A stretch of DNA of 64,000 nt from Alphaproteobacteria bacterium (GTDB lineage: Bacteria; Pseudomonadota; Alphaproteobacteria; RF32; CAG-239): the NCBI GenBank assembly GCA_017480745.1, contig JAFUSA010000005.1, forward strand, positions 4,462-68,461, in the 5' to 3' direction. A model generated the notes under the pieces. It worked only from the letters and a program-made list of their open reading frames with translations, ran no database searches and had not been told where the DNA came from. Each line of letters begins with the position of its first letter. Position 1 is the stretch's first letter. This document shows, piece by piece, positions 4,402-49,930 of this stretch. Position numbers and translations under genes: made by a program.

Positions 4402-4502
4402 AAAATAATCTATCAACACAATTATACTGCATAACACAAAATTATGTTTACTTTTATGAATAATTACATATAATCCTCTCGATTTTGATAAGGAGTCTTT
4501 AT

Positions 4503-5873: not shown

Positions 5874-5976
5874 TTCAATTATCTGATATATGCCGCAAAA
5901 TAATTTTGACTACCTACAAAACTGCCGACGCCATTACAAGCATCGGCAGTGCGCTTGATTATTTTGCAAAAATAGT

Positions 5977-6242
5977 TTGACTTTTGCATTTTTTATGATA
6001 TAGTGAGGGAAGAACTTCGGTTCGGAGCTTTGACAAGCTCTTGCTAAGTTAGGTGTTTTAGGACACCGTAGTAAAGATATAATGAATATCTCCGATGTGG
6101 TCGGGGAGCCTGTGATGGATGTTCAGGGCTTCTGCCTAAAGATTACAGGAATCGTTTAACTTAGCATGATTTGTCAACTCTCCGATCGCCGTTTGGCGGT
6201 CTGTTTTTTTTAATAAACAACTTTAACAGAGGAGATAAAATT
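5977..6242 (+). promoter_or_regulatory. Promoter plus type B structured leader of pilin-like gene P1
   Basis: TTGACT (5977-5982), 16 nt, then TGaTATAGT (5996-6004). The leader has GAAC-UUCG-GUUC (6012-6023). A long-range pairing joins GCUAAGUUA (6043-6051) to UAACUUAGC (6157-6165). The box GUCAACUCUCC (6173-6183) precedes the hairpin GAUCGCC-GUUU-GGCGGUC (6184-6201), which is followed by a T8 run. Confidence 0.7.
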
Positions 6243-6893
6243 ATGAAAAATTTTGAAATTAAAAATGAGTCCGGCAGAAGTATGATAGAAATGTTAGGCG
6301 TGCTTGCCATCATTGGTGTTTTGAGTGTTGGCGGAATCGCCGGATACAGCAAGGCGATGACTAAATATAGAATCAACAAAACCATTGAACAAATAACTCT
6401 TATTGCCGGTAATGTGCGTGCGTTCTTTGCTCCGCAACACAATTATGATGGACTTGACAGCTGCTCTGATGATAACTCTTATTGCAAATTAATCAGAAAA
6501 GCCAAACTAATACCGGATGAAATGTGGGATGATACTTATAAAAGATTTAAAAATGTGTTTGGGTATAGGGTTGATTTAATGACGAAAAATAGGTCTACTG
6601 ATGGCGACAAGCAGGCATTTGATATTTATTACTCTATAGGAGATAATATGGAAACCTGTATAGAATTGTTAAGTTACGACTGGCGTATGTCTGGTGCGCA
6701 AGCTATTCAAATCGGTGGTCCCGCGGGGGCTGTTAATTTTAAACTTCCCGTTGCCGTAGATAAAGCTGTTGAGGCATGTTCGGAAACTATCAGTAAAAAC
6801 CGGATGTATGGAGGATCCTTTCCTGATATGCTTTTTTTCTTTGATATAAATTTAAACAGCACATATTGGAGTTCTTTGACTTGGGCAAATTAG
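6243..6893 (+). CDS. Type IV pilin-like protein P1 (class III signal peptide)
   Basis: MKNFEIKNESG|RSMIEMLGVLAIIGVLSVGGIAGYSKAM. Gly at -1, Glu at +5, then a hydrophobic helix. ATG at 6243 follows GAGGAGA. The ORF-track extension to 6171 runs through the leader RNA. Confidence 0.85.
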   Translation: MKNFEIKNESGRSMIEMLGVLAIIGVLSVGGIAGYSKAMTKYRINKTIEQITLIAGNVRAFFAPQHNYDGLDSCSDDNSYCKLIRKAKLIPDEMWDDTYKRFKNVFGYRVDLMTKNRSTDGDKQAFDIYYSIGDNMETCIELLSYDWRMSGAQAIQIGGPAGAVNFKLPVAVDKAVEACSETISKNRMYGGSFPDMLFFFDINLNSTYWSSLTWAN

Positions 6894-20720: not shown

Positions 20721-20796
20721 GCCGCTTTAGCTCAGGTGGTAGAGTAGCTGATTCGTAATCAGTTGGTCGCGTGTTCGAGTCACGCAAGCGGCACCA
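20721..20796 (+). tRNA. tRNA-Thr (anticodon CGU)
   Basis: Hand-folded cloverleaf. Acceptor gccgctt/aagcggc, anticodon arm gctga-TTCGTAA-tcagt, T arm gcgtg-ttcgagt-cacgc, encoded CCA. Confidence 0.9.
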
Positions 20797-20836
20797 ACAA
20801 AAAACACCGGAATTTTATTCCGGTGTTTTTGTTTTT
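20797..20836. terminator. Bidirectional intrinsic terminator
   Basis: ACACCGG-aattttatt-CCGGTGT flanked by an A-run and a T-run. Lies between tRNA-Thr (+) and the 964-aa gene (-). Confidence 0.75.
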
Positions 20837-20846
20837 CAAGTATTGA

Positions 20847-23741
20847 TTACCACAACTCGTCATATTTAAGCGACGGATCGTTTAAGTTTTGACGATAAGC
20901 TTTATTGTATGGCTTAAAATCTGTGGTATTTTCAAACACATCATATTTATCAACATAATTGTCATAACCTAATTTGAAATCACCAAACGCATTATCGCGG
21001 TCAAAATAACAATAAGTGGTAGCATATCCCTCTAAGGTATATTTCTTAACAGGAAAGATGTTCCAATAAGCATTACCGGATAAATCTATCTTTAACGTTT
21101 TAGTAAATTTGGTGTATTCATTTGCAGGATACAAAAAGCCCATTAAAACGGCCCAACCGCGGGTATAACCTCCAGGAGGAACATTGCCGTAAGACGAACT
21201 CTTACCTGTTTTAATCGGTACCACCAAAGACTTTAACCATGTACTTTGTTGAAATACTAATGGTTTGAGGTGGTGTTTACCATCAACTTGGTCAGCAGAT
21301 AATACATAAACATCCTTATTGTTATGAGAAAGTTTCATCATATTATCAGCTAATGTTGCATTATTTATGCTAACGTTTTTGTTCGAAATAGGTGGAGTAA
21401 CATCCTCAATAGTTATCTTACCGCCGGAAATTGTTCCACTGTTTTTAGACTTTAATTCCAGTGCATTATATTCCGGTTCAACCAAAGTGGACGGAGCATT
21501 TGCCAAGTTCTTATTTTCCACATATGGCTTGCTGGTATTGCTCAAATTAAGGCTACCAGCCTGCGCCATTTGGAAACTGGACGGAGTAACCGTAATCACG
21601 CGGCTGTATCCCGGAGGACAAGGAGGTGCCGGAACTACACCAGTATATGGTGAAGCATAGTTATCATCTGAAGTAAGAGAGCCATCACCAGCTTTACCAA
21701 GAGAATCAAGTTGTGCTGATAAGTTTGATTCATTGAATGTTAGTGAAGTATCTTCATCTTTACTATTCGTTGCCACATAAATCCCCTTGGTGATGAAGTC
21801 CGGCAAAATATCACTCAGGCGGGCTCCACCGCGGGTAGTCAACTTAATATCATTCATTACAGACGTATAAGCCGGATTAACCATATAGGTATCATAGCGA
21901 TTGTCACCGCTACCATAGGTAGTACGTGCAGAAGATGTTAATAAATCCGGCACTTTTACCAAATTACCATCTTTATCCAAATTATTGGCAACAAAACGGT
22001 TCGCCATAACAATACCGGTGCCGTCATCTGCCGCATTAGTTGATGTAGGCTTATTATTTGTTCCCCTATCTTGAGCTTTGTCACCGGTTACATCTAACAT
22101 ACCTTTGCGAACAAATACCGTACCGGCTTTTGCTCCGTTATCTCCGGTTTTATCATGCATTTCCCACCTATTGGTTGCTTTATTGTATGATGGGGCTGTA
22201 TTAATTTTGGCACTATCACCGAATTCTGCCGTAATAACTTTATTATCGGCTGAAGCTGTTTGCGAACCGCTGATTTGCAATTTCCAATCTCCGGATTCCA
22301 ACGCCACATGACCTGTTGTTTTGCCACTGACATCTGTTGCTTCGGTAGATATTCCATAATAGGTATTTTGTCCGGTCGATTTAAGGCCGGCTGTTCGAGA
22401 TGTTCCACTGTCATTCAAAACAAACTCATTACCTCTACTATCGCTATCATTCTTGGTTTTAATCTCCACATTGCCGTTAGTGATGCCGGCAGTGGTATAA
22501 ATAGTCGGTAATGTACCGTTATGTTGAACCATACCGTTTACTTGAATGCCTTCGGCATCAACTTTGAGCCATTTGTTAGTGTCATCAATTTTATCCGAGC
22601 CAACTTCAAATTCGGTAGCGCGAACTTTTCCCGTATCAACCTGTTTGGCTATCAATTCTTCATTTACCCTAACTTTACCATCAACTGAAACGGTTATCTC
22701 ACCCGGAGCAGTACTGTATAACCCACTTATGTTATCAGTTGTAACATGCTCATTCATATCGATATCGCCGTCGCTGACAAGAAATCTTGCTTTGTTGTTT
22801 GCCTCATTGAAAGCAGCTTCCAATGTTCCACCGATGAAAGCATTTGGGTTGGTACCGGTTTTATTGATAAACAAACCATAATCCATTTCATTGCCTTCAC
22901 CGTCCGTAACTTTTTCGGCTCCAACAATCAAACTGTTTATGTTGCGAATGCTATATTTTGTTTGTGATTTAGTTTCATCGCCATCATCATCAAGCCCCGT
23001 AGAGGTGTTTTGATTTCCGCCCATATATAAATCGGTGCGCATAGTATTACGCCATTCCTGATTTTCACCGTTTTCTTTGGTACGTTGCAAGAACTTTGTT
23101 TGTTCTCCCTCTTCCCCAAGATTTTCTCCATTTACAACATTTGAAGACGAAATAACAATAGAATATACATTAGGCTCCGCCGCGGCTGTGCCTCCAAATA
23201 CATTGGTATAGTTTTCTCCTTCTAACTTCCAAATACCACCGATACCTCGTGCTTTAACACCACCTGAAGTACCTGTAATATATCCGCCGTTAGAACCAAC
23301 CAACGCAGCAATACGCGCTGTGCGTTCTTGTCCTATACCCTTAGCTGCATCTGATTTTGCCGGATAAACCACAAACGCTGTCAGGTTATTACTACGGCGA
23401 TATACTTTAGCCACAGGCTCACCGAATTCGTAAAGCGAACCTGCTTGGAAATTATACGGTAAATAAGCTGCTAAATCTGCGTTTGATATAGTGATATAAT
23501 CACTCGCATGAATATCTTTATCCATTAAATTAGAATAGTTAGCGGCAATATAAGCATCAACTGCCCCGATATATGTGCGCATTGCACCGGCAGTATTTAT
23601 ATCTTCAACTTCCAGCGTGCGCTCTGCCGATTTTTTATACATGGTAGGAGTAACCACTGCAATCAGCCCCAACATTGCCAAGGCTTCAATCATCAAACCG
23701 CCGCGTTCGGTAAGTGTTTTGTATATTTTTTTGTTATTCAT
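20847..23741 (-). CDS. Giant pilin-like protein (964 aa) with class III signal-type N-terminus
   Basis: ATG at 23741, 6 nt after GGAGA. MNNKKIYKTLTERG|GLMIEALAMLGLIAVVTP has Gly at -1 and Glu at +5 with a hydrophobic helix. The rest is Gly/Thr/Asn/Ser/Asp-rich, with the first Cys only near residue 700. Confidence 0.65.
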   Translation of the reverse strand: MNNKKIYKTLTERGGLMIEALAMLGLIAVVTPTMYKKSAERTLEVEDINTAGAMRTYIGAVDAYIAANYSNLMDKDIHASDYITISNADLAAYLPYNFQAGSLYEFGEPVAKVYRRSNNLTAFVVYPAKSDAAKGIGQERTARIAALVGSNGGYITGTSGGVKARGIGGIWKLEGENYTNVFGGTAAAEPNVYSIVISSSNVVNGENLGEEGEQTKFLQRTKENGENQEWRNTMRTDLYMGGNQNTSTGLDDDGDETKSQTKYSIRNINSLIVGAEKVTDGEGNEMDYGLFINKTGTNPNAFIGGTLEAAFNEANNKARFLVSDGDIDMNEHVTTDNISGLYSTAPGEITVSVDGKVRVNEELIAKQVDTGKVRATEFEVGSDKIDDTNKWLKVDAEGIQVNGMVQHNGTLPTIYTTAGITNGNVEIKTKNDSDSRGNEFVLNDSGTSRTAGLKSTGQNTYYGISTEATDVSGKTTGHVALESGDWKLQISGSQTASADNKVITAEFGDSAKINTAPSYNKATNRWEMHDKTGDNGAKAGTVFVRKGMLDVTGDKAQDRGTNNKPTSTNAADDGTGIVMANRFVANNLDKDGNLVKVPDLLTSSARTTYGSGDNRYDTYMVNPAYTSVMNDIKLTTRGGARLSDILPDFITKGIYVATNSKDEDTSLTFNESNLSAQLDSLGKAGDGSLTSDDNYASPYTGVVPAPPCPPGYSRVITVTPSSFQMAQAGSLNLSNTSKPYVENKNLANAPSTLVEPEYNALELKSKNSGTISGGKITIEDVTPPISNKNVSINNATLADNMMKLSHNNKDVYVLSADQVDGKHHLKPLVFQQSTWLKSLVVPIKTGKSSSYGNVPPGGYTRGWAVLMGFLYPANEYTKFTKTLKIDLSGNAYWNIFPVKKYTLEGYATTYCYFDRDNAFGDFKLGYDNYVDKYDVFENTTDFKPYNKAYRQNLNDPSLKYDELW

Positions 23742-23778
23742 CTCTGTTCTCCCTATATTATTCCACATACCAATCAAT

Positions 23779-24609
23779 TTATTGATTCATCAGTTTATCA
23801 CAACGATCTTTTTCCGCAGAAACTCGTTGTATATGGTCATAAGCAAAAAAGCAGGCGCTTGCCCCACAAGTATCTTTCAAATTTTCATTTTGTGTCCACA
23901 TAATAGAGTTTTCATCCAAAACATCATAGCGAATACTCTGCGTTCCTTTGCCGATAGTATTATCTATCAAACTTATTTTGGCATTATTTCCCAATAATTT
24001 ACATTGTAAGGTATCTTCCCCTGAAATACTGCAATCCGTCCACCCGAAAATAGTTGAAGTCCCCAAACCATAAACACGACCGGACGCCGAAGTAGAAGAC
24101 TTAGACAATAAGTTAACCAAAACAGGAAGAGGCGTCGCCTCTAAGCTTTTGGAAAGCCACGCATCAGGAATTGCCGCATAAGACACAGCATAAATATAAT
24201 CTTTTTCCCCTGCTCTATCACACCGAACAAATTCATTATTTTCAGATGTCTCTGCCTGCTCTTTCAAGCAATATATATAATGTTGTACCGTCAAATCGCC
24301 ACTGTTGGCATACCCAACCGGCAGATTATCGGTATATGATGTATAAGGAAAGCTCAAAGCGCCTTCTCCACTCATTTTGACTGGAACTGGTTTGAGCGGG
24401 TCATCAACGGTATACCAGCCATCGTTATTGGTGGATTTAATAATCTCGCATTCCATAGTTTTTACCATGGCCGTATGCTCCGCCTTAAAGCGGTTAACAA
24501 CCGAGGCTGCTTTAATTTCACTCAATGTATTATCTTTATCCGGTCGTTGCGACAAATTAAGGAAGCTTAGTGCCACCATCACCGTTGCCAGAAATATCCA
24601 TATATACAT
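23779..24609 (-). CDS. Membrane-anchored hypothetical protein, first gene of the giant pilin-like operon
   Basis: 276 aa. ATG after GGAG. The N-terminus MYIWIFLATVMVALSFLNL is hydrophobic from residue 1, with no Gly/Glu prepilin motif. The stop is 37 nt before the next gene. Confidence 0.5.
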   Translation of the reverse strand: MYIWIFLATVMVALSFLNLSQRPDKDNTLSEIKAASVVNRFKAEHTAMVKTMECEIIKSTNNDGWYTVDDPLKPVPVKMSGEGALSFPYTSYTDNLPVGYANSGDLTVQHYIYCLKEQAETSENNEFVRCDRAGEKDYIYAVSYAAIPDAWLSKSLEATPLPVLVNLLSKSSTSASGRVYGLGTSTIFGWTDCSISGEDTLQCKLLGNNAKISLIDNTIGKGTQSIRYDVLDENSIMWTQNENLKDTCGASACFFAYDHIQRVSAEKDRCDKLMNQ

Positions 24610-24849
24610 ACAAAGACTCCGATAAACCTATACTAATGTAACTCTATCACAACATTCGGCAAAAATCCATATACTTTTTGCTTTTACAAAGATATTTAAT
24701 ATTTTTGTAATATTTTGTCTGAATAAAATAAAAATATAGTTAAAATATGCGGTGCATTTGTTGATTTTGTGCAGTTTTGCAATATATTTATGATACTGTT
24801 TTTGGTAAATAACTCAGTATTTACATCACACATTTACAAGGAGATAACA

Positions 24850-25442: not shown

Positions 25443-26219
25443 TTAATTTGCCCAAATACTGTTTTTCCAATATTCGCTATTGACATCAACATCGAAGTAG
25501 AAAGTCAGATTAATGCTATCTTTGTCATAAAGAGCTGAATCCTCTTCTATGGCTTTTGAACATACTTCAACTGCCTTATCAACGCTTACCGGAGTTTTTA
25601 GAAATGCATCGTAATCTCCAGAATCTCCCATAACATATATTGCTTTAACATTAGCATTGCTCCAATCATGAGTTGTCAACTCAATACATGCTTCTTCATT
25701 ATTTATAAGGTAATAAATACTAAACGCCTGATTATCATAGAGTTTGGATTTATCTTCTGTACCTAACGTAACCCCACCACCGAAAGGATTGGTAATAGAC
25801 ATAATCTTACCATCAGTTACAGTAATCATTTCATCTGGTAATATTTTGGCTTTTTTAACTATCGGACAGCCATTGTAAGCACCGGTAGGTTTTCCTTGTG
25901 CATTAACGCCGGAAGCACCCCAGCAACCGGAGGCATCGCAAGTGCTATCATCTTTACTACCGCAACGCACCCCGATATAATTCTTCTGTGGTCCCCAAAA
26001 GGCACGCACATTTCCGGCAATGAGAGTTGTTTGCTCAATTGTTTTGTTAATACGATATTTCATCATGGCCTTGCTGTATCCGGCGATTCCACCTACCGAT
26101 AAAACGCCAATGATAGCGAGCACGCCAAGCATTTCTATCATTGAACGACCGCTCTGTGCATTTTTCGTCATTGCGAGCGCAGCGTGGCAATCTGTATTTT
26201 TTATTTTTAAGTTTCTCAT
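25443..26219 (-). CDS. Type IV pilin-like protein P2
   Basis: MRNLKIKNTDCHAALAMTKNAQSG|RSMIEMLGVLAIIGVLSVGGIAGYSKAM. ATG at 26219 is preceded by the invariant AAAGGAAGTTTACT. The C-terminus is closest to P1 (..YW..WAN). Confidence 0.85.
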   Translation of the reverse strand: MRNLKIKNTDCHAALAMTKNAQSGRSMIEMLGVLAIIGVLSVGGIAGYSKAMMKYRINKTIEQTTLIAGNVRAFWGPQKNYIGVRCGSKDDSTCDASGCWGASGVNAQGKPTGAYNGCPIVKKAKILPDEMITVTDGKIMSITNPFGGGVTLGTEDKSKLYDNQAFSIYYLINNEEACIELTTHDWSNANVKAIYVMGDSGDYDAFLKTPVSVDKAVEVCSKAIEEDSALYDKDSINLTFYFDVDVNSEYWKNSIWAN

Positions 26220-26457
26220 AGTAAACTTCCTTTCATTATTAAAATACCTACAAAACGATACCGCCCTTATGAGGCGGTCGGAAGTTGACAACTATCACGA
26301 TAATAGTATGAGCTATTTGAATTATCTTATTCACCCATCTTCCAACCATAAAGTCGGAAATTATTTAACGTCCTTACGACGATCGTGAGAGGTTGTCACA
26401 CCCCAGACGAGTTACCTCATCTTGTGTTTATATTATCACAAAAAATCTAAAAGTCAA
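26220..26457 (-). promoter_or_regulatory. Promoter plus type A structured leader (P2 copy)
   Basis: Minus strand: TTGACT (26452-26457), TGaTAATAT (-10 at 26430-26435). H1 AGAUGAG-GUAA-CUCGUCU (26405-26422). Anti-SD box (26278-26287). Hairpin CCGCC..GGCGG (26261-26277). SD GGAAGUU (26224-26230). Confidence 0.75.
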
Positions 26458-26534
26458 ACATTTTCGCATTCATTTTTTAATTATTCTTTTCTTTTTTTAT
26501 TTTATAAACTATATTAAAGAGAGGAGAAGAATTG

Positions 26535-26946: not shown

Positions 26947-27891
26947 TTAGTGCTGATGCAAACCGGATTTTGTGCCACGCAGATTGATGGTCAAATCTTG
27001 TTGGCGATTCTTGCGAGTGGCCGTAAACGATGTGTGAACCCAGCCATCATTCGGGTCTGTCGAATCATCACCATAGAATTCAAGAATCAATTGGTCATAG
27101 AGCAAATTTTTACTCACCCACTCGGCAAGTTTGAAATTGTCCATTCCCATAATCTCAAAGTCCACAGCTTCACAGCGCATGTGCTGAGATGTTTTACTGG
27201 AACCTTTAACCACTGCGTTTAGCTTTGGCGAGCGGTAAGCAGAATTCACACGCACGGGGCGGTTAAAGCTGTTGCGTATCGGTTGCAAAACATTCACACA
27301 CACTTGTCGCAACTTTTCAATTCCGGCTTCGTCAGGGATATTGAAAATTTTGCGGGCATGTGCAGTTTCCGAGCGAACCATTTCCCACAATGTGAAGTTG
27401 TTGGAAAGCCTAAGAGCACGAAGTCCGCTTTCTGCCGATAAGTTAAGCTTGCGATTCTTTTTAGGATCAACATAGGATAGATGAACCCACGCTTCGCCAG
27501 CATAATCAGCGTCGTAGCGCAAAAATTCAAGCATAACCACGTCAAAGTCCAAGTTGTTGACAATCCATTCTGTTACCACTTTCGGACTGATGCCTCGGAC
27601 GCGAAAATCCACTGCTTCGCAACTCAGGTGTTGAGAGTTCGGAGCGCCGTTCCACAAATGATTAACGCGTGGTGTGCGAAAACCGTTGACTATGGTAACA
27701 GGTTTGCCGAAATGCATTGCTATCGGTTGCAACAAAACATTGCAAAAGAGCTTCAACTTTGCGATTCCTTGTTCATCGGGAACATTGTAAATATTATTTT
27801 CCGTTGCCTTAGAATCGTGCGTGAACTCCCACAAATTAAAGCTTTCGCTCAAACGATAAGCTTTAAGTTCCGCAGAATTAAGCTGTTTCAT
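26947..27891 (-). CDS. Tandem-duplicated zinc peptidase M15 (D-Ala-D-Ala carboxypeptidase / endolysin-like) protein
   Basis: Two ~155-aa repeats. Each has a LS..F.LWE..S.TA start, a S-Q-H-x6-D motif (SQHLSCEAVD and SQHMRCEAVD) and a later WVH. No signal peptide. Confidence 0.65.
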   Translation of the reverse strand: MKQLNSAELKAYRLSESFNLWEFTHDSKATENNIYNVPDEQGIAKLKLFCNVLLQPIAMHFGKPVTIVNGFRTPRVNHLWNGAPNSQHLSCEAVDFRVRGISPKVVTEWIVNNLDFDVVMLEFLRYDADYAGEAWVHLSYVDPKKNRKLNLSAESGLRALRLSNNFTLWEMVRSETAHARKIFNIPDEAGIEKLRQVCVNVLQPIRNSFNRPVRVNSAYRSPKLNAVVKGSSKTSQHMRCEAVDFEIMGMDNFKLAEWVSKNLLYDQLILEFYGDDSTDPNDGWVHTSFTATRKNRQQDLTINLRGTKSGLHQH

Positions 27892-28581: not shown

Positions 28582-29853
28582 ATGAAGTTTAAAACAGCGG
28601 CAATCATCGGTTTAACATCTGTGGCTACCATTTTTGGTGGTAAAAAAATGCATGCACAAGAAGTAACAGATACTAAGCCGGATATAACTACCACTGTTAC
28701 AAATAATCAGAATACTCCTTTACAGTCGCAATCTGTTGACAGCATAGACGGTATTTCCGGTGCAGATAGTTTGAGCACAATCCAGTTAGATCTTAAAAGC
28801 TACGGTATTGATACATCTAAGTTGAGTGCACGTTCTAAAACATGGGCAAAAATAGATTCCGTAAAACAAGCCATAATTGATTATTATGATGCGCTGACTT
28901 CTTTCAGACACACAGATTCTCTTAAACTTAATGATGAAGATATTTTATATTTAAGAATGATTATGGGCAAGATGGATTTACATATCGGGTCGTTTCACAA
29001 TTTTGGTCGGGAAAACAATTTGCAATATAATGCTCGCGATTTGATTGGTATAAAAACCGGGGAATTCAGTCGTCAGATTGCGGATGAGTGCAAACAATAT
29101 ATGAAACCGCGCAACGCTCCGGGCGGGGAATGTTTAAAATTTGTTAAGCATGTTTTGGCTATTAATGGTGAAATATCAGAGTCTTTTTTGAAATTTGCAT
29201 CTGCCTATCAAACAATTAATTATTTTAACAACTGTGATAATTTTTCCATGCGCAAAACAGTTTGGGCCGATACAAATAAATATCCAAAGGGATCAATTGG
29301 TGTTTGTCAACGCGGTCCGGGTGCGGTTGATGCACATATTTGGATTGCCGATGAACAAGATTCCACACACATTGCTACCGTTCAACATGATGGTAATGTG
29401 TTGCAATTTTTGCCGACAATTCAGCTTTCCGACATCAAATACGGTTATAATCCAGATGGCCATCGCGGCAGAAGAGGTCATTATGGAGATCCGTTTGTGG
29501 TGCTGAGGAATGATGATACCGTTAGTATGTATACCGCATGGCGTGAGTTAATGAACTCCGAAGTTCAGGATTTACCTAACAAAGCGTTAACCATTGCGGA
29601 AAGCAAAGATAAAGTAAATGTTGCTGATTTCAGTTTTAAAAATCTGTTTCATATTTTGCTTAAACAAAAAGATCAACTGTTTGCTAAGTTTAATCATATT
29701 GATGGCGAAGTGCAATGGACAACAAAGCATGAAGCTGTTAATTGGTTAAAGCAAAGTCCATATAAAAAACTCAGCAGATACACCAAAAACCGCAAAAGAG
29801 GTGTTAAACGTCCGACTAATGTTCTGCGATCACGTGGTGGAAGAACATTGTGA
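28582..29853 (+). CDS. Secreted hypothetical protein, possible papain-like (CHAP/NlpC-like) Cys-His hydrolase
   Basis: 423 aa. Signal-peptide-like N-terminus. Candidate catalytic pair GGECLKFVKHV ... VDAHIWIADE. Very basic C-terminal tail (KNRKRGVKRPTNVLRSRGGRTL). The domain call is tentative. Confidence 0.35.
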   Translation: MKFKTAAIIGLTSVATIFGGKKMHAQEVTDTKPDITTTVTNNQNTPLQSQSVDSIDGISGADSLSTIQLDLKSYGIDTSKLSARSKTWAKIDSVKQAIIDYYDALTSFRHTDSLKLNDEDILYLRMIMGKMDLHIGSFHNFGRENNLQYNARDLIGIKTGEFSRQIADECKQYMKPRNAPGGECLKFVKHVLAINGEISESFLKFASAYQTINYFNNCDNFSMRKTVWADTNKYPKGSIGVCQRGPGAVDAHIWIADEQDSTHIATVQHDGNVLQFLPTIQLSDIKYGYNPDGHRGRRGHYGDPFVVLRNDDTVSMYTAWRELMNSEVQDLPNKALTIAESKDKVNVADFSFKNLFHILLKQKDQLFAKFNHIDGEVQWTTKHEAVNWLKQSPYKKLSRYTKNRKRGVKRPTNVLRSRGGRTL

Positions 29854-32397: not shown

Positions 32398-32844
32398 ATG
32401 ATTGATAATAAACCTTCCGAAGGCTTGAGCTTTATGATGAAGTTGAACAATGCCGCTTTTGATAAAAAGGAATTGGTTCGACTGGCTCACGAGGCAATTA
32501 TGGATTCTCACGACCAACGTACGTTTGTTGAACGTAAGGGTAAGGATTTACGGGTTAACCCGACCAGTATAAATTTAGGGGCAACCGTAGGTATGGGGCA
32601 TGCAATATTGAACCATAATCTTTCTACTAACGATAAGTTAAATATGGTTATGAAAAAATACATAGATTTAACGGTTAAAGATAATCCGGATATCAGTAAA
32701 GAAAGTGCTCTGAATAGTTTTTGCAAAGATTTTGCCAAGAGTTATCCTGAAGAATATGGTGCAAAAAGTGGCGAACATACCCGACAAAATGCCCTGAACC
32801 CTCTTTTGAAAGCAAAAATCGTGGCTCAACAATATCAAACATAG
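32398..32844 (+). CDS. Hypothetical protein
   Basis: 148 aa. ATG after GGAGG. Followed by a GC hairpin plus T-run at ~32908-32935. I recognise no family. Confidence 0.4.
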   Translation: MIDNKPSEGLSFMMKLNNAAFDKKELVRLAHEAIMDSHDQRTFVERKGKDLRVNPTSINLGATVGMGHAILNHNLSTNDKLNMVMKKYIDLTVKDNPDISKESALNSFCKDFAKSYPEEYGAKSGEHTRQNALNPLLKAKIVAQQYQT

Positions 32845-32950: not shown

Positions 32951-33610
32951 TTATTCAGTCCAATAAGTTGAGTTGGCATCAACATCAAATAATAAACCCA
33001 AAAATGAATGACCATCTTCACAAAATTTCACTGATGTATCAATGTCAACCGGAACATGTAAATATTGATATTTTGTATCAACGTCAGGTGAAGTTATTAT
33101 TTTTACTCCGGCAGAAGTCCAATCATATGTGATAAGTTCTACACAGGCTTCTTCAGGAATATTAGTAAACCAGATACCAAAAGCTTTATTATCTCCACCA
33201 AATATTCCCTCACTTTTATCGATTGCTCCAAAACTATTTATACTTTCTCCAAAAGCACTTGTCATGCCGGTAATTTTTCCTGTGGATCTATCAAATATCA
33301 ACATTTCATCCGGCACTAACTTTGCTTTTTGAATAATTGCTTTTCCTGTATCTGTTGACAAATCTAATCCCGCATAATTTCCCTGAGGAGCAAAAAAAGT
33401 CCGCACATTACCGGCGATGAGAGTTATTTGCTCAATAGTTTTGTTAATTCTATACTTCATCATCGCCTTGCTGTATCCGGCGATTCCGCCTACCGATAAA
33501 ACGCCGATGATGGCAAGAACGCCCAACATCTCTATCATTGAACGTCCGGATTGGCTCCCTCGCCCCTTGCGGGAGAGAGAATCATTATTTTTTATTTTTA
33601 AGTTTCTCAT
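32951..33610 (-). CDS. Type IV pilin-like protein P3
   Basis: MRNLKIKNNDSLSRKGRGSQSG|RSMIEMLGVLAIIGVLSVGGIAGYSKAM. Same SD context as P2, P4 and P5. Confidence 0.85.
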   Translation of the reverse strand: MRNLKIKNNDSLSRKGRGSQSGRSMIEMLGVLAIIGVLSVGGIAGYSKAMMKYRINKTIEQITLIAGNVRTFFAPQGNYAGLDLSTDTGKAIIQKAKLVPDEMLIFDRSTGKITGMTSAFGESINSFGAIDKSEGIFGGDNKAFGIWFTNIPEEACVELITYDWTSAGVKIITSPDVDTKYQYLHVPVDIDTSVKFCEDGHSFLGLLFDVDANSTYWTE

Positions 33611-33852
33611 AGTAAACTTCCTTTCATTTAACTAAATCACTAATAAAAACGACACCGCCCGATAAAGGCGGCCGGAAGTTGACGACTATTTTAGCTTAAA
33701 TAGTGTTGCGTATTCGCATATAACCTATTCCGCAACCTTCCAGCCACAGCTGGATTTTTTACGCCCATAAGGCGAAGCTAAAAGAGGTCGTCAAACCCCA
33801 GACAAGTTACCTTATCTTGTCTTTACTATATCATAAAAAACTTAAAAGTCAA
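33611..33852 (-). promoter_or_regulatory. Promoter plus type A structured leader (P3 copy)
   Basis: Minus strand: TTGACT (33847-33852), TGaTATAGT (-10 at 33825-33830). H1 AGAUAAG-GUAA-CUUGUCU (33800-33817). Box (33672-33683). Hairpin CCGCC..GGCGG (33655-33671). SD (33615-33621). Confidence 0.75.
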
Positions 33853-33911
33853 ACATTTTTATGAAAAATGCGCAAAATACGGTTGTTATTCGAGTATGAC
33901 ATAAATACATC

Positions 33912-41227: not shown

Positions 41228-41659
41228 ATGAGTGATGAATACATAAAATCTTTAAGCCAAGAAGAGAGAATTGTTTTTTTGAAATTGTTCTGCAAATTAA
41301 TTAAAGCAGATGGCGTAATTGACGCAGATGAGATTACATTTTTAAAATCTATTACCTCTCGCTACGGCATGGATAACAGCGTTGTGGTATCTATTGTTAG
41401 AGATTCCAATGCCATAAATATTGAAAATGAAGCTCGCAAAATTACCGATCGAAGGAAAGCTTTGCACCTTGTTCATGAGTTGTGTATGCTCGCTAATTTG
41501 GATGAAGATTTACACGAAAATGAATTGGATATAATTATTGACGCTTCTCGCGCCATGGGAATTGAAGATGATAAAGTTATTTTGATTAATCGTTTTGTGT
41601 TAGACAGTTTGATTTTGGCTAAAACCGGACGAGTTATTATGGAAGAAGACAATGGATAA
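41228..41659 (+). CDS. TerB-like (tellurite resistance B / DjlA N-domain-like) protein
   Basis: 143 aa. Repeated pattern L..LIKADGVIDADEI.FL and ..ANLDEDLHENELDII typical of the TerB fold. Confidence 0.5.
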   Translation: MSDEYIKSLSQEERIVFLKLFCKLIKADGVIDADEITFLKSITSRYGMDNSVVVSIVRDSNAINIENEARKITDRRKALHLVHELCMLANLDEDLHENELDIIIDASRAMGIEDDKVILINRFVLDSLILAKTGRVIMEEDNG

Positions 41660-42119
41660 GCAAGAATTGAAAAAAGCTCTGCAAGAACAATGCGAACCGT
41701 TTGCCGAAAGCGTTCGCAAGAAGATAGAGTATTTGCAGAGTGATGAAGTTTTTTCCGTTGATGAGCAAGACGATTTTCTACCGGAAGAAGATTTATCTTT
41801 GGAAGCCGCTTTCGATTTGGCTATGCTTAACGAACCGAATGTGGTTAAATATGACGACCCGTTATCCGGCGCGCGCAATCAGCCGATGGAAAGGCGTGGT
41901 TCAACATATTCTGCACCAGCGGCTTCAAAGCAATCAACAACACCGGAAAGCTCGAGTGTGTTTGATATGTTTAAGGAAAACAATATTCCAACCTCCGTAT
42001 ATGTTAATACCACACCTACGCAACAAAGTATAAAGGAAAACAGGCAGAGTATTGCTGCAAAAATAGCTGCTTTGCGCGGAATATCTGTTCCTGACAACTA
42101 TTTGAACAAGAAAAATTAA
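41652..42119 (+). CDS. Hypothetical protein, translationally coupled to the TerB-like gene
   Basis: 155 aa. The ATG overlaps the upstream stop by 8 nt. Acidic N-terminal half, Ser/Thr/Pro-rich centre. Confidence 0.4.
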   Translation: MDKQELKKALQEQCEPFAESVRKKIEYLQSDEVFSVDEQDDFLPEEDLSLEAAFDLAMLNEPNVVKYDDPLSGARNQPMERRGSTYSAPAASKQSTTPESSSVFDMFKENNIPTSVYVNTTPTQQSIKENRQSIAAKIAALRGISVPDNYLNKKN

Positions 42120-42169: not shown

Positions 42170-42826
42170 TTAATACGATGAACTATGTGCAGAATCAAAA
42201 TTTTTAACATCAACGAAAAAAGTTAAATCATACGAGCTATGATTTGCAAGGTCTTCACATATTGTGTTAGCTAACTCTAAATCAACCGGTGTTACCGCAT
42301 GTTTATGCTCACCACCTCCAATATAAGCTCCGACAGCGGTAATATTGGCAGTACTCCAATCCTGACTGACTATTTCAATACAAGCTTCTTGCGGAATGGA
42401 GCCTACATAAATCATAAAACCGTCTAATCCAATATAACCGCCGTCATCTTGCAGAGATACTGCATTTCCAAATGCTCCGGTAATTGCAGTAATTTTACCG
42501 GTAGCACTATCAACTGTTACCATCTCATCAGGGAATATTTTGGCTTTTTTAACTATCGGACAGCCATCTTTAGAAGATTGACCAGAGCAACCGGCACTAT
42601 AGCAATAACAATACACCCCATCATAATTTCTCTGATTTGAAAAAAATGTTCGCACATTTCCGGCAATGAGTGTTATTTGCTCAATGGTTTTGTTGATGCG
42701 ATACTTCATCATTGCCTTGCTGTATCCGGCGATTCCGCCAACAGAGAGAACACCAATTATAGCAAGAACTCCCAACATCTCAATCATTGAACGTCCGTTT
42801 TGATTTTTTATTTTTAAGTTATTCAT
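42170..42826 (-). CDS. Type IV pilin-like protein P4
   Basis: MNNLKIKNQNG|RSMIEMLGVLAIIGVLSVGGIAGYSKAM. Shortest (11 aa) leader peptide. Confidence 0.85.
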   Translation of the reverse strand: MNNLKIKNQNGRSMIEMLGVLAIIGVLSVGGIAGYSKAMMKYRINKTIEQITLIAGNVRTFFSNQRNYDGVYCYCYSAGCSGQSSKDGCPIVKKAKIFPDEMVTVDSATGKITAITGAFGNAVSLQDDGGYIGLDGFMIYVGSIPQEACIEIVSQDWSTANITAVGAYIGGGEHKHAVTPVDLELANTICEDLANHSSYDLTFFVDVKNFDSAHSSSY

Positions 42827-43066
42827 AGTAAACTTCCTTTCATCAAATTAGTTATTTCATTACAAAATTAACCGCCCACTGAGGCGGCCGGAAGTTGGAA
42901 ACTATACATAGAAATAGTGAGATCTATTTGATATAACCTATTCAATCTCCTTCCGACCAAAGTCGGAAACATTTTACGTTTAGACAACGCCTATGTAGAG
43001 GTTTCCACACCTCAGACGAGTTACCTCATCGTGGTTTTATTATACAATAAAAAATTTCAAAGTCAA
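42827..43066 (-). promoter_or_regulatory. Promoter plus type A structured leader (P4 copy)
   Basis: Minus strand: TTGACT (43061-43066), TGTATAAT (-10 at 43039-43044). H1 GAUGAG-GUAA-CUCGUC (43014-43031). Box (42888-42898). Hairpin CCGCC..GGCGG (42872-42887). SD (42831-42837). Confidence 0.75.
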
Positions 43067-43138
43067 ACATTTTTTTCAATTCGGCAAACTTTTGTAGCCC
43101 TACTCTATTTATTATCGATGCCTGCCCCAAAGCGGCTA

Positions 43139-43419: not shown

Positions 43420-44091
43420 ATGACAAGCAAAATTATCGTGTGGGATTTGGATAACACTCTATATCGTGAAACTCCGGAATTCCACGATTTGATGGATACT
43501 ATTACTGCCGAAGCGGCTATTGAAGATTTTCATTTACCTATGGATTTACAAACCGCTAAGGAAATAGTAACCGAATCTTATCGCACTTATCGCGATGGCG
43601 GCGAAATATTTATAAAAAAATACGGAATATCTCCAAAGGAAATGTTTGACGCATATCATAAACGCAAAGAAGATAACCTTGCTCCGATTAAACCATACGA
43701 CGGTTTGGCCGAAAAGATATCCGAATTAAAATGCCCGCAATACATTTTTTCAACAAGCTCTCATAACGCTTGTGAGGCCATTTTAAAACACATAGGATTA
43801 TATGATTTTTTTGCCGGAAGATTCTATTCGGTAGAAGAATTTGCCGCTTATAAAAAAAATGAAAGTGCCGATGTGTATTTGAAATTTTGCCAGGCAATTA
43901 ATGCCTCTCCTGAGGATTGTTTATTTATAGATGACAGCTATTCTAATTTGGAATGTGCAAAAAAAGCCGGTATGACCACAGTGCGCTTGTGTCACGGCAA
44001 ACAAAATAATAAGAGCACAGAGTATATTGACTATGCGGTAGATAATATTGATGATTGCCTGAGTTTCTTATTTGAATATTTCAAGTGCTAA
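43420..44091 (+). CDS. HAD-superfamily hydrolase (pyrimidine 5'-nucleotidase-like)
   Basis: IVWDLDNTLY (DxD motif I), FSTSS (motif II), IDDSYSN (motif IV). Confidence 0.65.
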   Translation: MTSKIIVWDLDNTLYRETPEFHDLMDTITAEAAIEDFHLPMDLQTAKEIVTESYRTYRDGGEIFIKKYGISPKEMFDAYHKRKEDNLAPIKPYDGLAEKISELKCPQYIFSTSSHNACEAILKHIGLYDFFAGRFYSVEEFAAYKKNESADVYLKFCQAINASPEDCLFIDDSYSNLECAKKAGMTTVRLCHGKQNNKSTEYIDYAVDNIDDCLSFLFEYFKC

Positions 44092-44771
44092 TCGCGACAA
44101 TATGACGCTTCTTTTTTGTAATTTTCAGTTGTATCAATACGAGAGTTTTGTTTTTCTAAATTTTTGCGAAAATCATTGAAGATTTGTTCAACCTTGTTCG
44201 TATATATTTGCACAACTTTCTGTTCGTCTGCTTCATAATTGTCTTTGGAAACAAATGGACCGTTTGTTTCTATATACTGTTGCAAATTATCTCTCATATC
44301 TTTTGCTGCATCTCTTAATGCCTGATGACCGAATTGCAAATGTGTTTGTTCGTGACGCATAGTCAGATTGAATTGACAGCTATCTTTTTTTAACCGATTG
44401 GATATATATACAACAGGCGTATATAGCAATTTTACTTCAATTTTTTTCGGATATGTGCAATAGCGCTCCGATTTTAGCATAACTGTTTCCGGATCTATGC
44501 TAACTGATGCGCGTGCCGAAAGCTGTGTTAATCCGCGAATACGTTCAACAACTCCATTCGGATTATCTTCCAAATAGATCTGTTTAATTTCGTCAGGACT
44601 TTTTTCATAATCATAATGCAAATCGCCATAATTATAAATTACCTCAATTTTGGGAGGATTTTCCGCCACCCAATTTTTACATTCTTTTACGGAATATTCA
44701 AAAGACGACGCCGCCCAACTTTGTAGGGAATATAAACAAGCGCACAATATCAAAATAAATAATCTACTCAT
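44088..44771 (-). CDS. Secreted putative zinc metalloprotease (HExxH, DUF922-like)
   Basis: Signal peptide MSRLFILILCACLYSLQSWA. The HEQTH motif sits in MRHEQTHLQFGH. Confidence 0.45.
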   Translation of the reverse strand: MSRLFILILCACLYSLQSWAASSFEYSVKECKNWVAENPPKIEVIYNYGDLHYDYEKSPDEIKQIYLEDNPNGVVERIRGLTQLSARASVSIDPETVMLKSERYCTYPKKIEVKLLYTPVVYISNRLKKDSCQFNLTMRHEQTHLQFGHQALRDAAKDMRDNLQQYIETNGPFVSKDNYEADEQKVVQIYTNKVEQIFNDFRKNLEKQNSRIDTTENYKKEASYCRD

Positions 44772-44871: not shown

Positions 44872-45561
44872 ATGAAAAAATATTTATTTTTGTCTTGTCT
44901 GTTGTTTGTTTTAACACCGCTTGCCGTGGCGCAAAATGTTAATCGCAATACGGTTATGCCGGGATTCTTTGTTCCGAATAATGCTCTAACAACCACATCT
45001 TCTCCGGAAAATTTGCAAGCGAATCCCATGGCTCAATATAGGGGAAAGCAATTAAAAGATGTATATAATTTACAAACAGAAGAGCGAGAACAGCAAACAA
45101 TGCAACCGCAACAGTATTCAACCCAAAGCAATGCTCGGCAAAACACCGAACAAACTATTGCCGGCCCTATGCCGCAATCCGTTTCCTCAAACGATGCTTC
45201 AAACAATCAGAAGAGTTATGTGCGAGGTAGTTTTCAAGTTGAAAATGAGCCTTTTGAAGAAGAAACAAACAATTTTGAACCAGAATACAGCGAAGGTTTC
45301 AATAATGAAACGACTTCTTCGTCATATTCTGACATAAAATCTGAGGCTGATAAAATTCGCGAAGCACTTAAACATATGAGTGTTGAAGAATATATGCAGC
45401 AGTTAGCAAATGGTGGAACAAACGAACGTTCCGCAGTGTATGATAAAATTTTCAATGAATATGAACAAGACTTGGCAAGAATCAGTCAACACCAACCGGT
45501 TGCAAATGAACGTTTAGATAAGATGCTGTCCGATTATCACAATGAAGACAGACATTTATAG
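44872..45561 (+). CDS. Secreted Gln/Asn/Glu-rich hypothetical protein
   Basis: Signal peptide MKKYLFLSCLLFVLTPLAVAQ. Low-complexity Q/N/E/S-rich centre. Terminator at ~45582-45616. Confidence 0.45.
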   Translation: MKKYLFLSCLLFVLTPLAVAQNVNRNTVMPGFFVPNNALTTTSSPENLQANPMAQYRGKQLKDVYNLQTEEREQQTMQPQQYSTQSNARQNTEQTIAGPMPQSVSSNDASNNQKSYVRGSFQVENEPFEEETNNFEPEYSEGFNNETTSSSYSDIKSEADKIREALKHMSVEEYMQQLANGGTNERSAVYDKIFNEYEQDLARISQHQPVANERLDKMLSDYHNEDRHL

Positions 45562-48865: not shown

Positions 48866-48990
48866 TTTATCCTCACTTTATTTAACAAATTGCACACAAT
48901 TTAATTGTATTCAATACCTTATTAGCAAAACATTTTATTTAAGTCAACGATTATAACGTGTATGTGTTAATTTTTTTTTGCAAAAATAGT

Positions 48991-49234
48991 TTGACATTTA
49001 AGTTTTTTATGGTATCATAAAAACAAGATGAGGTAACTTGTCTGGGGTGTCGAAACCTCTCAACTTTCGTCTGTTATGGACGTTAAATTTTCCAGCATGG
49101 CTGGAAGGTTGCAGAATAAGAATGAGTATCGAATATGCAACACTGTTTAAAGTTGACAGTTTCGAACTTCCGGCCACCTCATGAGGTGGTTAATTTTGTA
49201 ATGAAATAACTAATTTAATGAAAGGAAGTTTACT
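48991..49234 (+). promoter_or_regulatory. Promoter plus type A structured leader (P5 copy, reference copy)
   Basis: Promoter: TTGACA (48991-48996), 16 nt, then TGgTATCAT (49010-49018).
Helices: H1 49026-49043 (GUAA loop), H2 49044-49059, H3 49068-49082, H4 49090-49106, H5 49142-49160.
Platform: box AACUUCC 49165-49171, palindromic hairpin CCACCUCAUGAGGUGG 49174-49189 followed by a U-rich tract, SD GGAAGUU 49224-49230. Confidence 0.8.
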
Positions 49235-49930
49235 ATGAAAAACTTTGATACAAAAAATATTCAAATTAATTTTAATCAAGCGGAAGATGCCTTGACGATT
49301 CCTGCGGAATCGAGGCATGACCATAAGTGTGGCTCTACCACACAAAGCGGTCGCTCAATGATAGAAATGCTTGGCGTGTTAGCCATTATCGGTGTGTTAT
49401 CGGTGGGCGGCATCGCCGGATATTCAAAAGCCATGCAAAAATATCGCATCAACAAAACCATTGAACAAATAACTCTTATTGCCGGCAATGTGCGTGCATT
49501 TTTTGCTCCGCAAAGAAATTATGACGACTTATCAACCAATGTTATCAAAAAAGCCAAACTTGTACCCGATGAAATGTGGGATGGTGGAAGTGACACTAAT
49601 CCGGTTAACGCATTTGGAGGAAATTTTGTGTTTTCTGCTGAGAATTTAACATCTGCTTCCAATATATCGGGTTCTTTTGTTATTATGATTGATTCTATTC
49701 CGCAAGAAGCCTGTATTGAAATAGCCACTATGGATTGGCGCGCAGATTCCGGAAATTCTGTTGTTAATATTTCTGTTAACGGTACTATGGATGAAACATT
49801 AGCGCAATATACAGATAATTGCACAGACAGTGCTCACAATGTTTGTGCAAAAAATATGCCGATGGATATTGCAACGGCTTCAAATGCTTGCAGTTCAGAT
49901 GAAAATTTTATAGGTATTAAGTTCTATTAA
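49235..49930 (+). CDS. Type IV pilin-like protein P5
   Basis: A 39-aa leader peptide ending ..TTQSG|RSMIEMLGVLAIIGVLSVGGIAGYSKAM. Divergent C-terminal domain with KKAKLVPDEM and IPQEACIEI motifs shared with the family. Confidence 0.85.
   Translation: MKNFDTKNIQINFNQAEDALTIPAESRHDHKCGSTTQSGRSMIEMLGVLAIIGVLSVGGIAGYSKAMQKYRINKTIEQITLIAGNVRAFFAPQRNYDDLSTNVIKKAKLVPDEMWDGGSDTNPVNAFGGNFVFSAENLTSASNISGSFVIMIDSIPQEACIEIATMDWRADSGNSVVNISVNGTMDETLAQYTDNCTDSAHNVCAKNMPMDIATASNACSSDENFIGIKFY

Follow-up and report, generated by a model that had tools for sequence, protein, structure and literature searches.

A chromosomal two-gene unit of gut Alphaproteobacteria probably encodes a very large PilV-type minor pilin and its leaderless partner protein

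The 64,000-nt stretch of contig JAFUSA010000005.1 analysed here (positions 4,462 to 68,461 of the forward strand, assembly GCA_017480745.1, Alphaproteobacteria bacterium; hereafter the window) carries two adjacent genes on its minus strand, which raise the question whether a protein of 964 amino acids (aa), A, can be the subunit of a type IV pilus, and what its 276-aa neighbour B contributes. A first-pass annotation, made from the sequence without database searches, had described the pair as a two-gene operon for a protein with a pilin-type N-terminus and a membrane-anchored partner. Following it up by homology searches and structure prediction, we consider it probable that A is a chromosomal, very large minor pilin of the PilV type, acting in a type IVb pilus of the PilS/PilV class of plasmid R64, and that B is its obligate co-expressed partner. 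By analogy with characterised systems, the B-A pair is likely to make up the end of this pilus that serves adhesion or priming. All coordinates refer to the whole window, and residues are numbered from the ATG of A or B. The parts of the locus are as follows.

24610-24680, minus strand: region upstream of B, with a Shine-Dalgarno sequence GGAG at 24620-24617
23779-24609, minus strand: gene B, 276 aa, ATG at 24609
23742-23778, minus strand: B-A spacer of 37 nt, with a Shine-Dalgarno sequence GGGAGA at 23753-23748, 6 nt 5' of the ATG
20847-23741, minus strand: gene A, 964 aa, ATG at 23741, stop codon at 20849-20847
23700-23741, minus strand: A residues 1-14, putative basic class III leader MNNKKIYKTLTERG, last residue Gly(-1)
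23610-23699, minus strand: A residues 15-44, predicted mature N-terminus GLMIE(+5)ALAMLGLIAVVTPTMYKKSAERT with the hydrophobic alpha-1N segment, the most conserved part of the family
22992-23609, minus strand: A residues ~45-250, predicted globular pilin domain, homologue of the PilV constant region (Shufflon_N, PF04917)
22122-22991, minus strand: A residues ~251-540, putative stalk rich in Gly, Thr, Asn and Asp, of variable length (from BLAST segments and the conservation profile)
20850-22121, minus strand: A residues ~541-964, conserved C-terminal domain with invariant C708 and C911
20800-20830, both strands: bidirectional intrinsic terminator hairpin, 14-bp perfect stem with an A-run and a T-run
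20721-20796, plus strand: tRNA-Thr, convergent with A, the terminator lying between both

Both open reading frames (ORFs) were recovered with the lengths, adjacency and minus-strand orientation first described, and the other early statements on the layout held as well. A starts at ATG 23741 behind a ribosome-binding site, read here as GGGAGA (23753-23748). Of residues 61-964, 42.7% are Gly, Thr, Asn, Ser or Asp, and the protein is free of Cys up to VPAPPCPPGY and has its second Cys in TTYCYFD, C708 and C911 being the only two. The unit ends at a terminator shared with tRNA-Thr, found as a 14-bp inverted repeat at 20800-20830. The mechanically delimited ORF of A opens further upstream, at TTG 23777; its homologues all start at the equivalent of the ATG. 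Judged by the homologue counts given below, A and B are real genes and not chance ORFs. Since no terminator lies within the 37-nt spacer, the two are likely to be co-transcribed; upstream of B only weak sigma-70-like matches and no confident promoter were found. A shufflon at the 3' end of A was considered and rejected, as the sole notable inverted repeat there is the terminator, 17 nt from the gene end, with no alternative 3' segments and no adjacent recombinase.

The N-terminus of A consists of MNNKKIYKTLTERG followed by GLMIEALAMLGLIAVVTP, that is, a basic leader of 13 residues, then Gly(-1) and, in the following segment, Glu(+5). The class III signal-like motif proposed at first pass was thus confirmed, and it proved to be a property of the family: Gly(-1), Glu(+5) and the hydrophobic stretch occur together in 252 of 261 A-family sequences, the other nine being one chimera-like protein and fragments that are truncated at the 5' end or mis-started. 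The leaders are varied in sequence and range from 8 to 27 aa, with a median net charge of +4, and the residue at +1 is G, S or T. In the next ~35 residues the family is near-invariant (G[GST][LM][ML][IV]EA.AML.LI..VTP..YKK.AER), even at ~30% overall identity. AlphaFold2 places a helix at residues 10-67 of A, followed by strands and helices to residue ~200, the predicted local distance difference test score (pLDDT) of residues 1-35 being below 50. A variable basic leader in front of a fixed Gly(-1), a fixed Glu(+5) and an alpha-1N segment that is the most conserved part of the protein constitutes a class III signature, unlike a simple signal anchor, and on these grounds A carries a conserved class III (prepilin) signal.

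Behind this signal, the pilin domain of A could be related to the constant region of PilV by several profile methods. When 42 diverse A relatives were scanned against Pfam, four matched PF04917 (Shufflon_N), and in a targeted scan five full-length relatives reached 44.0, 38.9, 37.6, 36.5 and 28.0 bits (gathering threshold 27.5), their matches spanning positions ~10-245 of the 324 in the profile and protein residues ~48-300. A phmmer search with R64 PilV against 250 A-family N-termini gave E-values down to 4.6e-8. A hidden Markov model (HMM) built from the A-family N-termini found R64 PilV at E 4.7e-9 as its sole non-self match among 564 ORFs (the R64 pil region plus the window), the next ORF following at E 0.29. 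By hhalign, the A-family N-terminal profile was aligned with R64 PilV over 162 columns (A 55-242 to PilV 48-218; E 3.8e-5), including the motifs GGY, W.L and L.R....N.M.T.LYMG; the domain closes in A with the motif KFLQRT..NTMRTDLYMGG. In the AlphaFold2 model, residues 40-200 (pLDDT 70-83) comprise a long N-terminal helix and then a beta-sheet with intervening helices. These comparisons assign residues ~45-250 to the PilV constant-region superfamily, as a diverged member; because A itself remains below the Pfam threshold, it is termed PilV-like and not a Shufflon_N member. An assignment of A to a non-pilin family by HMM, which the first-pass annotation had named as the outcome that would speak against it, was not obtained, the N-terminal ~250 residues being linked to PilV instead. 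Its picture of a modular pilin with a large grafted domain is upheld because of this HMM link and the co-occurring small pilins described below.

Comparison with its relatives divides A into a conserved N-terminal module (residues 1 to ~310), a variable middle (~310-540) and a conserved C-terminus (~540-964). The middle is 200-450 residues longer in most homologues, and in some of them it matches bactofilin or hexapeptide beta-helix models of Pfam and NCBIfam, which suggests a beta-helical stalk; the NCBIfam scan of 42 relatives yielded no PilV model and only sporadic beta-helix matches. In the C-terminal domain an invariant block, YMVNPAYTSVM.DIKLTTRGGARLSD.LPDF, is accompanied by further invariant blocks, VPAP.CPPGY, FQQSTWLK, GW..L/MGF.YP, YWN.FPV, Y.TxYCYF.R and RLNDP.LKY..W. 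C708 and C911 are an invariant pair and are predicted to form one disulphide in this domain. No match to the domain was found in Pfam, NCBIfam, PHROG or the PDB sequences, nor did single-sequence and profile searches with A retrieve anything from the PDB. In close relatives, of 74-86% identity, the figure falls to 58-71% at residues ~400-560 and to 53% at ~760-800, most other positions remaining at 80% or more. Such hypervariable patches fit exposed, fast-evolving surfaces on a conserved scaffold.

A separate observation concerns the same domain. The 966-aa protein P0313 (L085 538-3438) combines a Sec signal and BspA-type leucine-rich repeats with the C-terminal ~540 residues of an A-like protein. 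Its gene adjoins the L9-S18-S6 genes, where ordinary A genes are located in seven genomes, and the gene upstream of it is unrelated to B. Because of this shared location an assembly chimera is possible; the GC profile does not distinguish it from a real domain swap, and P0313 is not relied on here as proof of an independent C-terminal module.

The distribution of the pair was analysed by sequence searches. A has at least 611 homologues in clusters of 90% identity; at 50% identity, 589 clusters match with E<=1e-3, 279 of them with E<=1e-30, and the family ranges in size from 964 to 1471 aa. For B, 71 homologues are detectable. In the collection with one genome per GTDB species, A relatives are present in 76 loci and A is essentially single-copy per genome. 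Nearly all of these loci belong to metagenome-assembled genomes (MAGs) of uncultured Alphaproteobacteria from the gut of humans, primates, ruminants, horse and reindeer, a few of the bins bearing evidently wrong names. Loci with at least 900 nt of sequence upstream of A were taken as scorable, and in 68 of these 69 tblastn located B immediately upstream of A on the same strand; the remaining locus, L079, has a divergent B upstream of A, with the start MYLLMLLATFISAIYGYNLSPR. The surroundings of the pair differ from genus to genus, and no conserved third gene was found beside it, the best neighbour family occurring in 15 loci.

As noted at first pass, B begins without a Gly/Glu motif: its start, MYIWIFLATVMVALSF, leads directly into a hydrophobic helix (residues 1-21), with neither Gly(-1) nor Glu(+5), position 5 being Ile. 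The same holds in the family, 65 of the 71 homologues beginning directly with MYIWILLATIMVALSFFNLSPR (MYIWI...), and no in-frame start upstream of B is possible in the window. This helix is the most conserved stretch of a family in which column identity averages 28%, and eight Cys residues are invariant. The AlphaFold2 model of B (pLDDT 87.7; predicted template-modelling score 0.83) has a helix at residues 3-57, with a break at 20-22 (Pro21), followed by a seven-stranded beta-rich domain with short helices. B gave no match in Pfam, NCBIfam, PHROG or the PDB sequences by single-sequence or profile search, and a Pfam scan of 49 B homologues matched no family. In its predicted structure B is an orphan. 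A hydrophobic stretch of about 20 residues, a helix of ~55 and a beta domain rich in disulphides give it a layout reminiscent of a mature pilin, but none of the features that define a pilin was recognised in it. The earlier term 'membrane-anchored partner' is a fair description as far as it goes, although a helix that is invariant and has no leader points to something beyond a common membrane anchor.

If A is a minor pilin, the major subunits of its pilus may be sought among five small pilin genes of the window, which lie outside the B-A operon. These genes and their upstream regions are located as follows.

25443-26291, minus strand: small pilin nearest the pair, signal G followed by RSMIEMLGVLAIIGVLS
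6171-6893, plus strand: small pilin paralogue, PilS/bundlin-like
32951-33631, minus strand: small pilin paralogue, PilS/bundlin-like
42170-42847, minus strand: small pilin paralogue, PilS/bundlin-like
49214-49930, plus strand: small pilin paralogue, PilS/bundlin-like
5943-6260, plus strand: small-pilin upstream region
26202-26520, minus strand: small-pilin upstream region
33593-33910, minus strand: small-pilin upstream region
42809-43130, minus strand: small-pilin upstream region
48935-49252, plus strand: small-pilin upstream region

The small pilins match the Bundlin and PilS families of Pfam and are related to R64 PilS by hhalign (E 6.6e-6), which makes the five genes candidates for the major subunits of the pilus of A. 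While the C-termini vary, the N-terminal ~70 residues are invariant. Two more are encoded just past the window on the same 94-kb contig (L083 377-1117 and 8293-8979), bringing the number on this contig to at least seven. The family is very large: each of the 8000 database candidates that were scored was significant, the top 120 matches include at least 16 paralogues of a single MAG, and four genes lie within 20 kb in another genome (L086). They sit singly, scattered amid housekeeping genes. This expansion suggests antigenic variation or mixed filaments. A lack of co-occurrence with this family, the second outcome that the first-pass annotation had named as speaking against it, was not observed either: besides the five copies of the window, small pilin genes are present in the 10-kb flanks of B-A in six other species-level genomes, spread over the two deep branches of A.

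A conserved region of ~250 nt lies upstream of each of the five small pilin genes; in it a strong sigma-70-like promoter (TTGACTTTT-N17-TATGATATAGT) is followed by a leader of ~200 nt. The leader has conserved, partly self-complementary blocks, e.g. GGTCGGAAGG ... CAACTTCCGGCCGCC, and may be a regulatory element in the 5' untranslated region common to the pilin multigene family; no Rfam family reached its gathering score on it. This ~250-nt promoter and leader region is missing 5' of B, in agreement with the earlier statement that the operon has neither of the two leader types (A and B) distinguished at first pass.

Further components of a type IVb system were detected in relatives. In three related species (L029, L044 and L046) a Peptidase_A24 match of 59 bits is located ~2-3 kb beyond the 3' end of A, at ~6 kb when measured from its start. 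In L029 (15730-16443, minus strand), as in L044 and L046, this is a stand-alone prepilin peptidase of 237 aa, which consists of Peptidase_A24 only, has no methyltransferase domain, and is encoded between groES and bL25/pth. A metagenome scan with the A24 peptidase led to contig L092 (Ga0265299_10002639), the peptidase of which is 76% identical and lies ~4 kb from genes for PAP_PilO, a 600-aa T2SSE ATPase, a T2SSF platform protein, a pilin-like protein in the position of pilS, and a second T2SSE ATPase of 319 aa, this last one on the other strand. The region (L092 92-10714) also holds an unannotated acidic coiled-coil protein of 576 aa and an ATP-binding cassette (ABC) transporter. The pilin-like protein has 205 aa, with Gly(-1) but no Glu5, and is a homologue of the small pilins (hhalign E 4e-6). 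From the L092 cluster and the A24 peptidases it follows that the lineage has R64-type type IVb machinery, and its type IV pilus genes appear to be dispersed and not gathered in one operon.

In the model that we favour, the alpha-1N helix would insert A into the inner membrane, and prepilin peptidase would cleave it after Gly14. Like TcpB, CofB and PilV, A would enter the filament at the start of assembly and would for that reason end up at the tip. There it would display an extension of ~700 residues, composed of the variable beta-rich stalk and the disulphide-bonded C-terminal domain with its hypervariable patches, and this extension would bind a target on the host, in mucus or on other cells. 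The disulphide-rich globular domain of B is presumably periplasmic or extracellular. B would act together with A in one of two ways: as a second subunit of the tip or priming complex, independent of the peptidase, or as an assembly factor that is bound to the membrane and serves the giant pilin.

Several results weigh against this model. A itself matches PF04917 at no E-value up to 1, and its link to PilV is transitive, via relatives and profiles; the hhalign probability of the A-family match to PilV is only 71%. The generic prepilin models PF07963 and TIGR02532 likewise do not match A at E<=1. These two models are tuned to G-F/M-type sites, and type IVb sites often escape both. Their failure to detect A explains why the family is annotated merely as 'hypothetical protein'. 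With a mean pLDDT of 48, the full-length AlphaFold2 model of A is poor, and Foldseek with this model found nothing significant in the PDB, TcpB chains appearing at E 0.24-1.3. The C-terminal domain of A is far better conserved than a typical adhesin tip, and its role could also be structural, enzymatic or in binding B. A search for assembly genes, by a Walker-A regular expression and by tblastn with the R64 Pil proteins, returned only PilS-like and PilU-like matches, and no assembly ATPase, platform protein or secretin was found in the window, the parts of the contig read or ~1.5 Mb of B-A flanks; neither was an A24 prepilin peptidase in the window or the read parts of the 94-kb contig. The machinery of the window's own organism is thus one that we infer from its relatives, and a literature search for pili in this lineage returned none. 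As to B, it lacks a basic N-terminal flank that would fix its topology. Foldseek with its confident model reached at best E 0.36 in the PDB and E 0.019 in BFVD, with template-modelling scores below 0.25 and no pilin among the neighbours, and hhalign of B against 14 R64 Pil proteins, the N-terminus of A, the small pilins and the proteins of the L092 cluster revealed no similarity.

The role of B is where the alternatives are strongest. It is quite possible, though less likely than not, that B is not a filament subunit at all and serves as an assembly factor or chaperone for the giant pilin, anchored in the inner membrane and working in the periplasm. It might, for example, hold or fold the ~900-residue periplasmic part of A before extraction, which would be compatible with the explanation preferred for A. 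Such a function would account for the missing Gly(-1) and Glu(+5), for a confident model that resembles no solved pilin, and for the strict adjacency and probable co-transcription with A, and the eight invariant Cys are what is expected of an oxidised periplasmic domain. On the other hand, bitopic assembly proteins of type IV pili normally have a basic cytoplasmic N-terminus, and no residue precedes the helix of B; moreover, this helix is the most conserved part of the protein, as in pilins, and its predicted length of ~55 residues with a break at Pro21 has the dimensions and layout of pilin alpha-1.

That B is itself a filament subunit, one without Glu5 and in no need of a peptidase, appears doubtful to us. 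GspK-type tip pseudopilins lack Glu5, as is expected of a subunit at the very tip, where no N-terminus in front of it has to be neutralised; a filament can begin with a subunit that has no Glu5. The likeness to GspK is one of analogy only and consists in the absent Glu5: the fold of GspK is known and its prepilin leader is cleavable, whereas B is leaderless and shows no detectable similarity to it. The most specific version, in which B would be a 'ready-made' leaderless, Glu5-less type IV subunit that caps or nucleates the filament together with A, giving a two-protein tip complex with two new globular parts, we regard as rather unlikely.

For A, it would be conceivable that the pilin-like N-terminus is a mere membrane anchor, or a short stem of the pseudopilus type, of a surface or periplasmic protein that never enters a pilus. 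The lack of assembly machinery beside the pair, the failure of the generic prepilin HMMs and the size of 964-1471 aa, far above that of the characterised pilins compared, would agree with this. However, for a plain anchor one would not expect Gly(-1), Glu(+5) and a near-invariant alpha-1N to be retained in 252 of 261 sequences that otherwise diverge to ~30% identity. In addition, the domain next to it has a homologue in PilV, which is a true subunit of pili, and PilS-like pilins, the peptidase and R64-type machinery are present in the lineage, so that an anchor function is judged decidedly unlikely.

A still poorer fit is a mating-pair-stabilising adhesin that serves conjugative transfer from an integrated element, as in IncI plasmids. 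PilV, the closest characterised homologue, has exactly that role (PMC9045228), and pilins of the PilS type are present here too. Against this, no tra or trb genes, relaxase, Rci recombinase or shufflon repeats were found nearby, and tblastn of A against 72,556 plasmids found nothing. The window belongs to a metagenomic scaffold of 94 kb and lies close to the chromosomal origin (dnaA, dnaN and recF at ~58-62 kb), and the genes around the pair are housekeeping genes (ATP synthase F0 genes, addAB, ribosomal protein genes); in about 70 species the pair has different chromosomal neighbourhoods. We regard a conjugative function as very improbable. An origin of A and B as phage tail-fibre or receptor-binding proteins, or as spurious ORFs, to which the Gly/Thr/Asn-rich, beta-rich sequence and the beta-helix repeat matches of some relatives might point, is effectively refuted and has a negligible chance of being right, as no A relative was found among the IMG/VR viral contigs, no significant match in PHROG and no phage gene in any flank, and hundreds of full-length homologues show clear purifying selection.

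Precedents exist for large minor pilins, for modular pilins and for PilV adhesins, and A is best described by what it shares with them. In the thin pili of IncI plasmids, PilV acts as the adhesin (PMC9045228). Like PilV of R64 and TP114 (IncI1/IncI2), A has a prepilin signal in which Glu5 is preceded by a non-canonical residue at +1, a homologous N-terminal constant domain (A residues ~55-242 to PilV residues 48-218), accompanying PilS-type pilins, and a variable region C-terminal to the constant pilin module. Unlike PilV, A is two to three times larger (964-1471 versus 474 aa), covers as a family about two thirds of the Shufflon_N profile only, has neither shufflon nor Rci recombinase, carries a conserved C-terminal domain of ~420 aa, and is encoded on the chromosome outside any pil operon, as an isolated two-gene unit in varying neighbourhoods. 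Its obligate upstream partner B has no counterpart in R64.

TcpB initiates pilus assembly (PMC5207764), and CofB is located at the tip, where it binds a secreted partner (PMC6048534). In TcpB of the toxin-coregulated pilus made by Vibrio cholerae and CofB of the enterotoxigenic Escherichia coli pilus CFA/III (colonization factor antigen III), as in A, a pilin domain is followed by beta-rich C-terminal domains in one large minor pilin, and a priming role and tip location are proposed for A as well. The dedicated partner also recalls CofB-CofJ and TcpB-TcpF (PMC5207764, PMC6048534, PMC9565799), although CofJ and TcpF are soluble secreted proteins, unlike B. A further difference is that A has no sequence match to TcpB or CofB in the PDB, and that the Foldseek comparison, made with the poor model of A, was non-significant. 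Modular pilins are an established concept (PMC8179133). Like PilB and PilC of Streptococcus sanguinis (PMC8179133), A is composed of a pilin module and a C-terminally grafted module, but it belongs to another pilus class and its graft is unrelated and far larger. What is new is the size of 964-1471 aa, the unannotated conserved C-terminal domain, the dispersed chromosomal organisation and the universally linked leaderless partner with an orphan fold.

Taken together, these data indicate that a type IVb pilus of plasmid type (R64 PilS/PilV) is a chromosomal core feature of this gut alphaproteobacterial lineage, each genome having major-pilin paralogues by the tens, a single giant minor pilin and the linked partner B. 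If A is a tip adhesin, it would be an obvious candidate colonisation determinant, with the hypervariable patches as the likely specificity regions. With the B-A pair it can be put to the test whether type IV filaments admit a helix protein that has neither leader nor Glu5. Pilus biology also gains a very large modular pilin and a conserved unannotated domain of ~420 aa; the generic prepilin HMMs overlook this family, which comprises more than 500 sequence clusters.

Some minor features were recorded in addition. The medium-sized window ORFs 28582-29853 (+), 44088-44771 (-), 44872-45561 (+), 32398-32844 (+) and 41652-42119 (+) have no Pfam match at E<=0.01. At 26947-27891 (minus strand) a protein of 314 aa with two tandem Peptidase_M15_3 domains, of the cell-wall peptidase type, is encoded next to a small pilin gene and tRNA-Lys. 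Past the window end, on the same contig, another small pilin gene is adjoined by the end of a gene (L083 1-329) for a 985-aa ankyrin-repeat protein with faint MORN matches, and these eukaryote-like repeats could point to a host-interaction factor.

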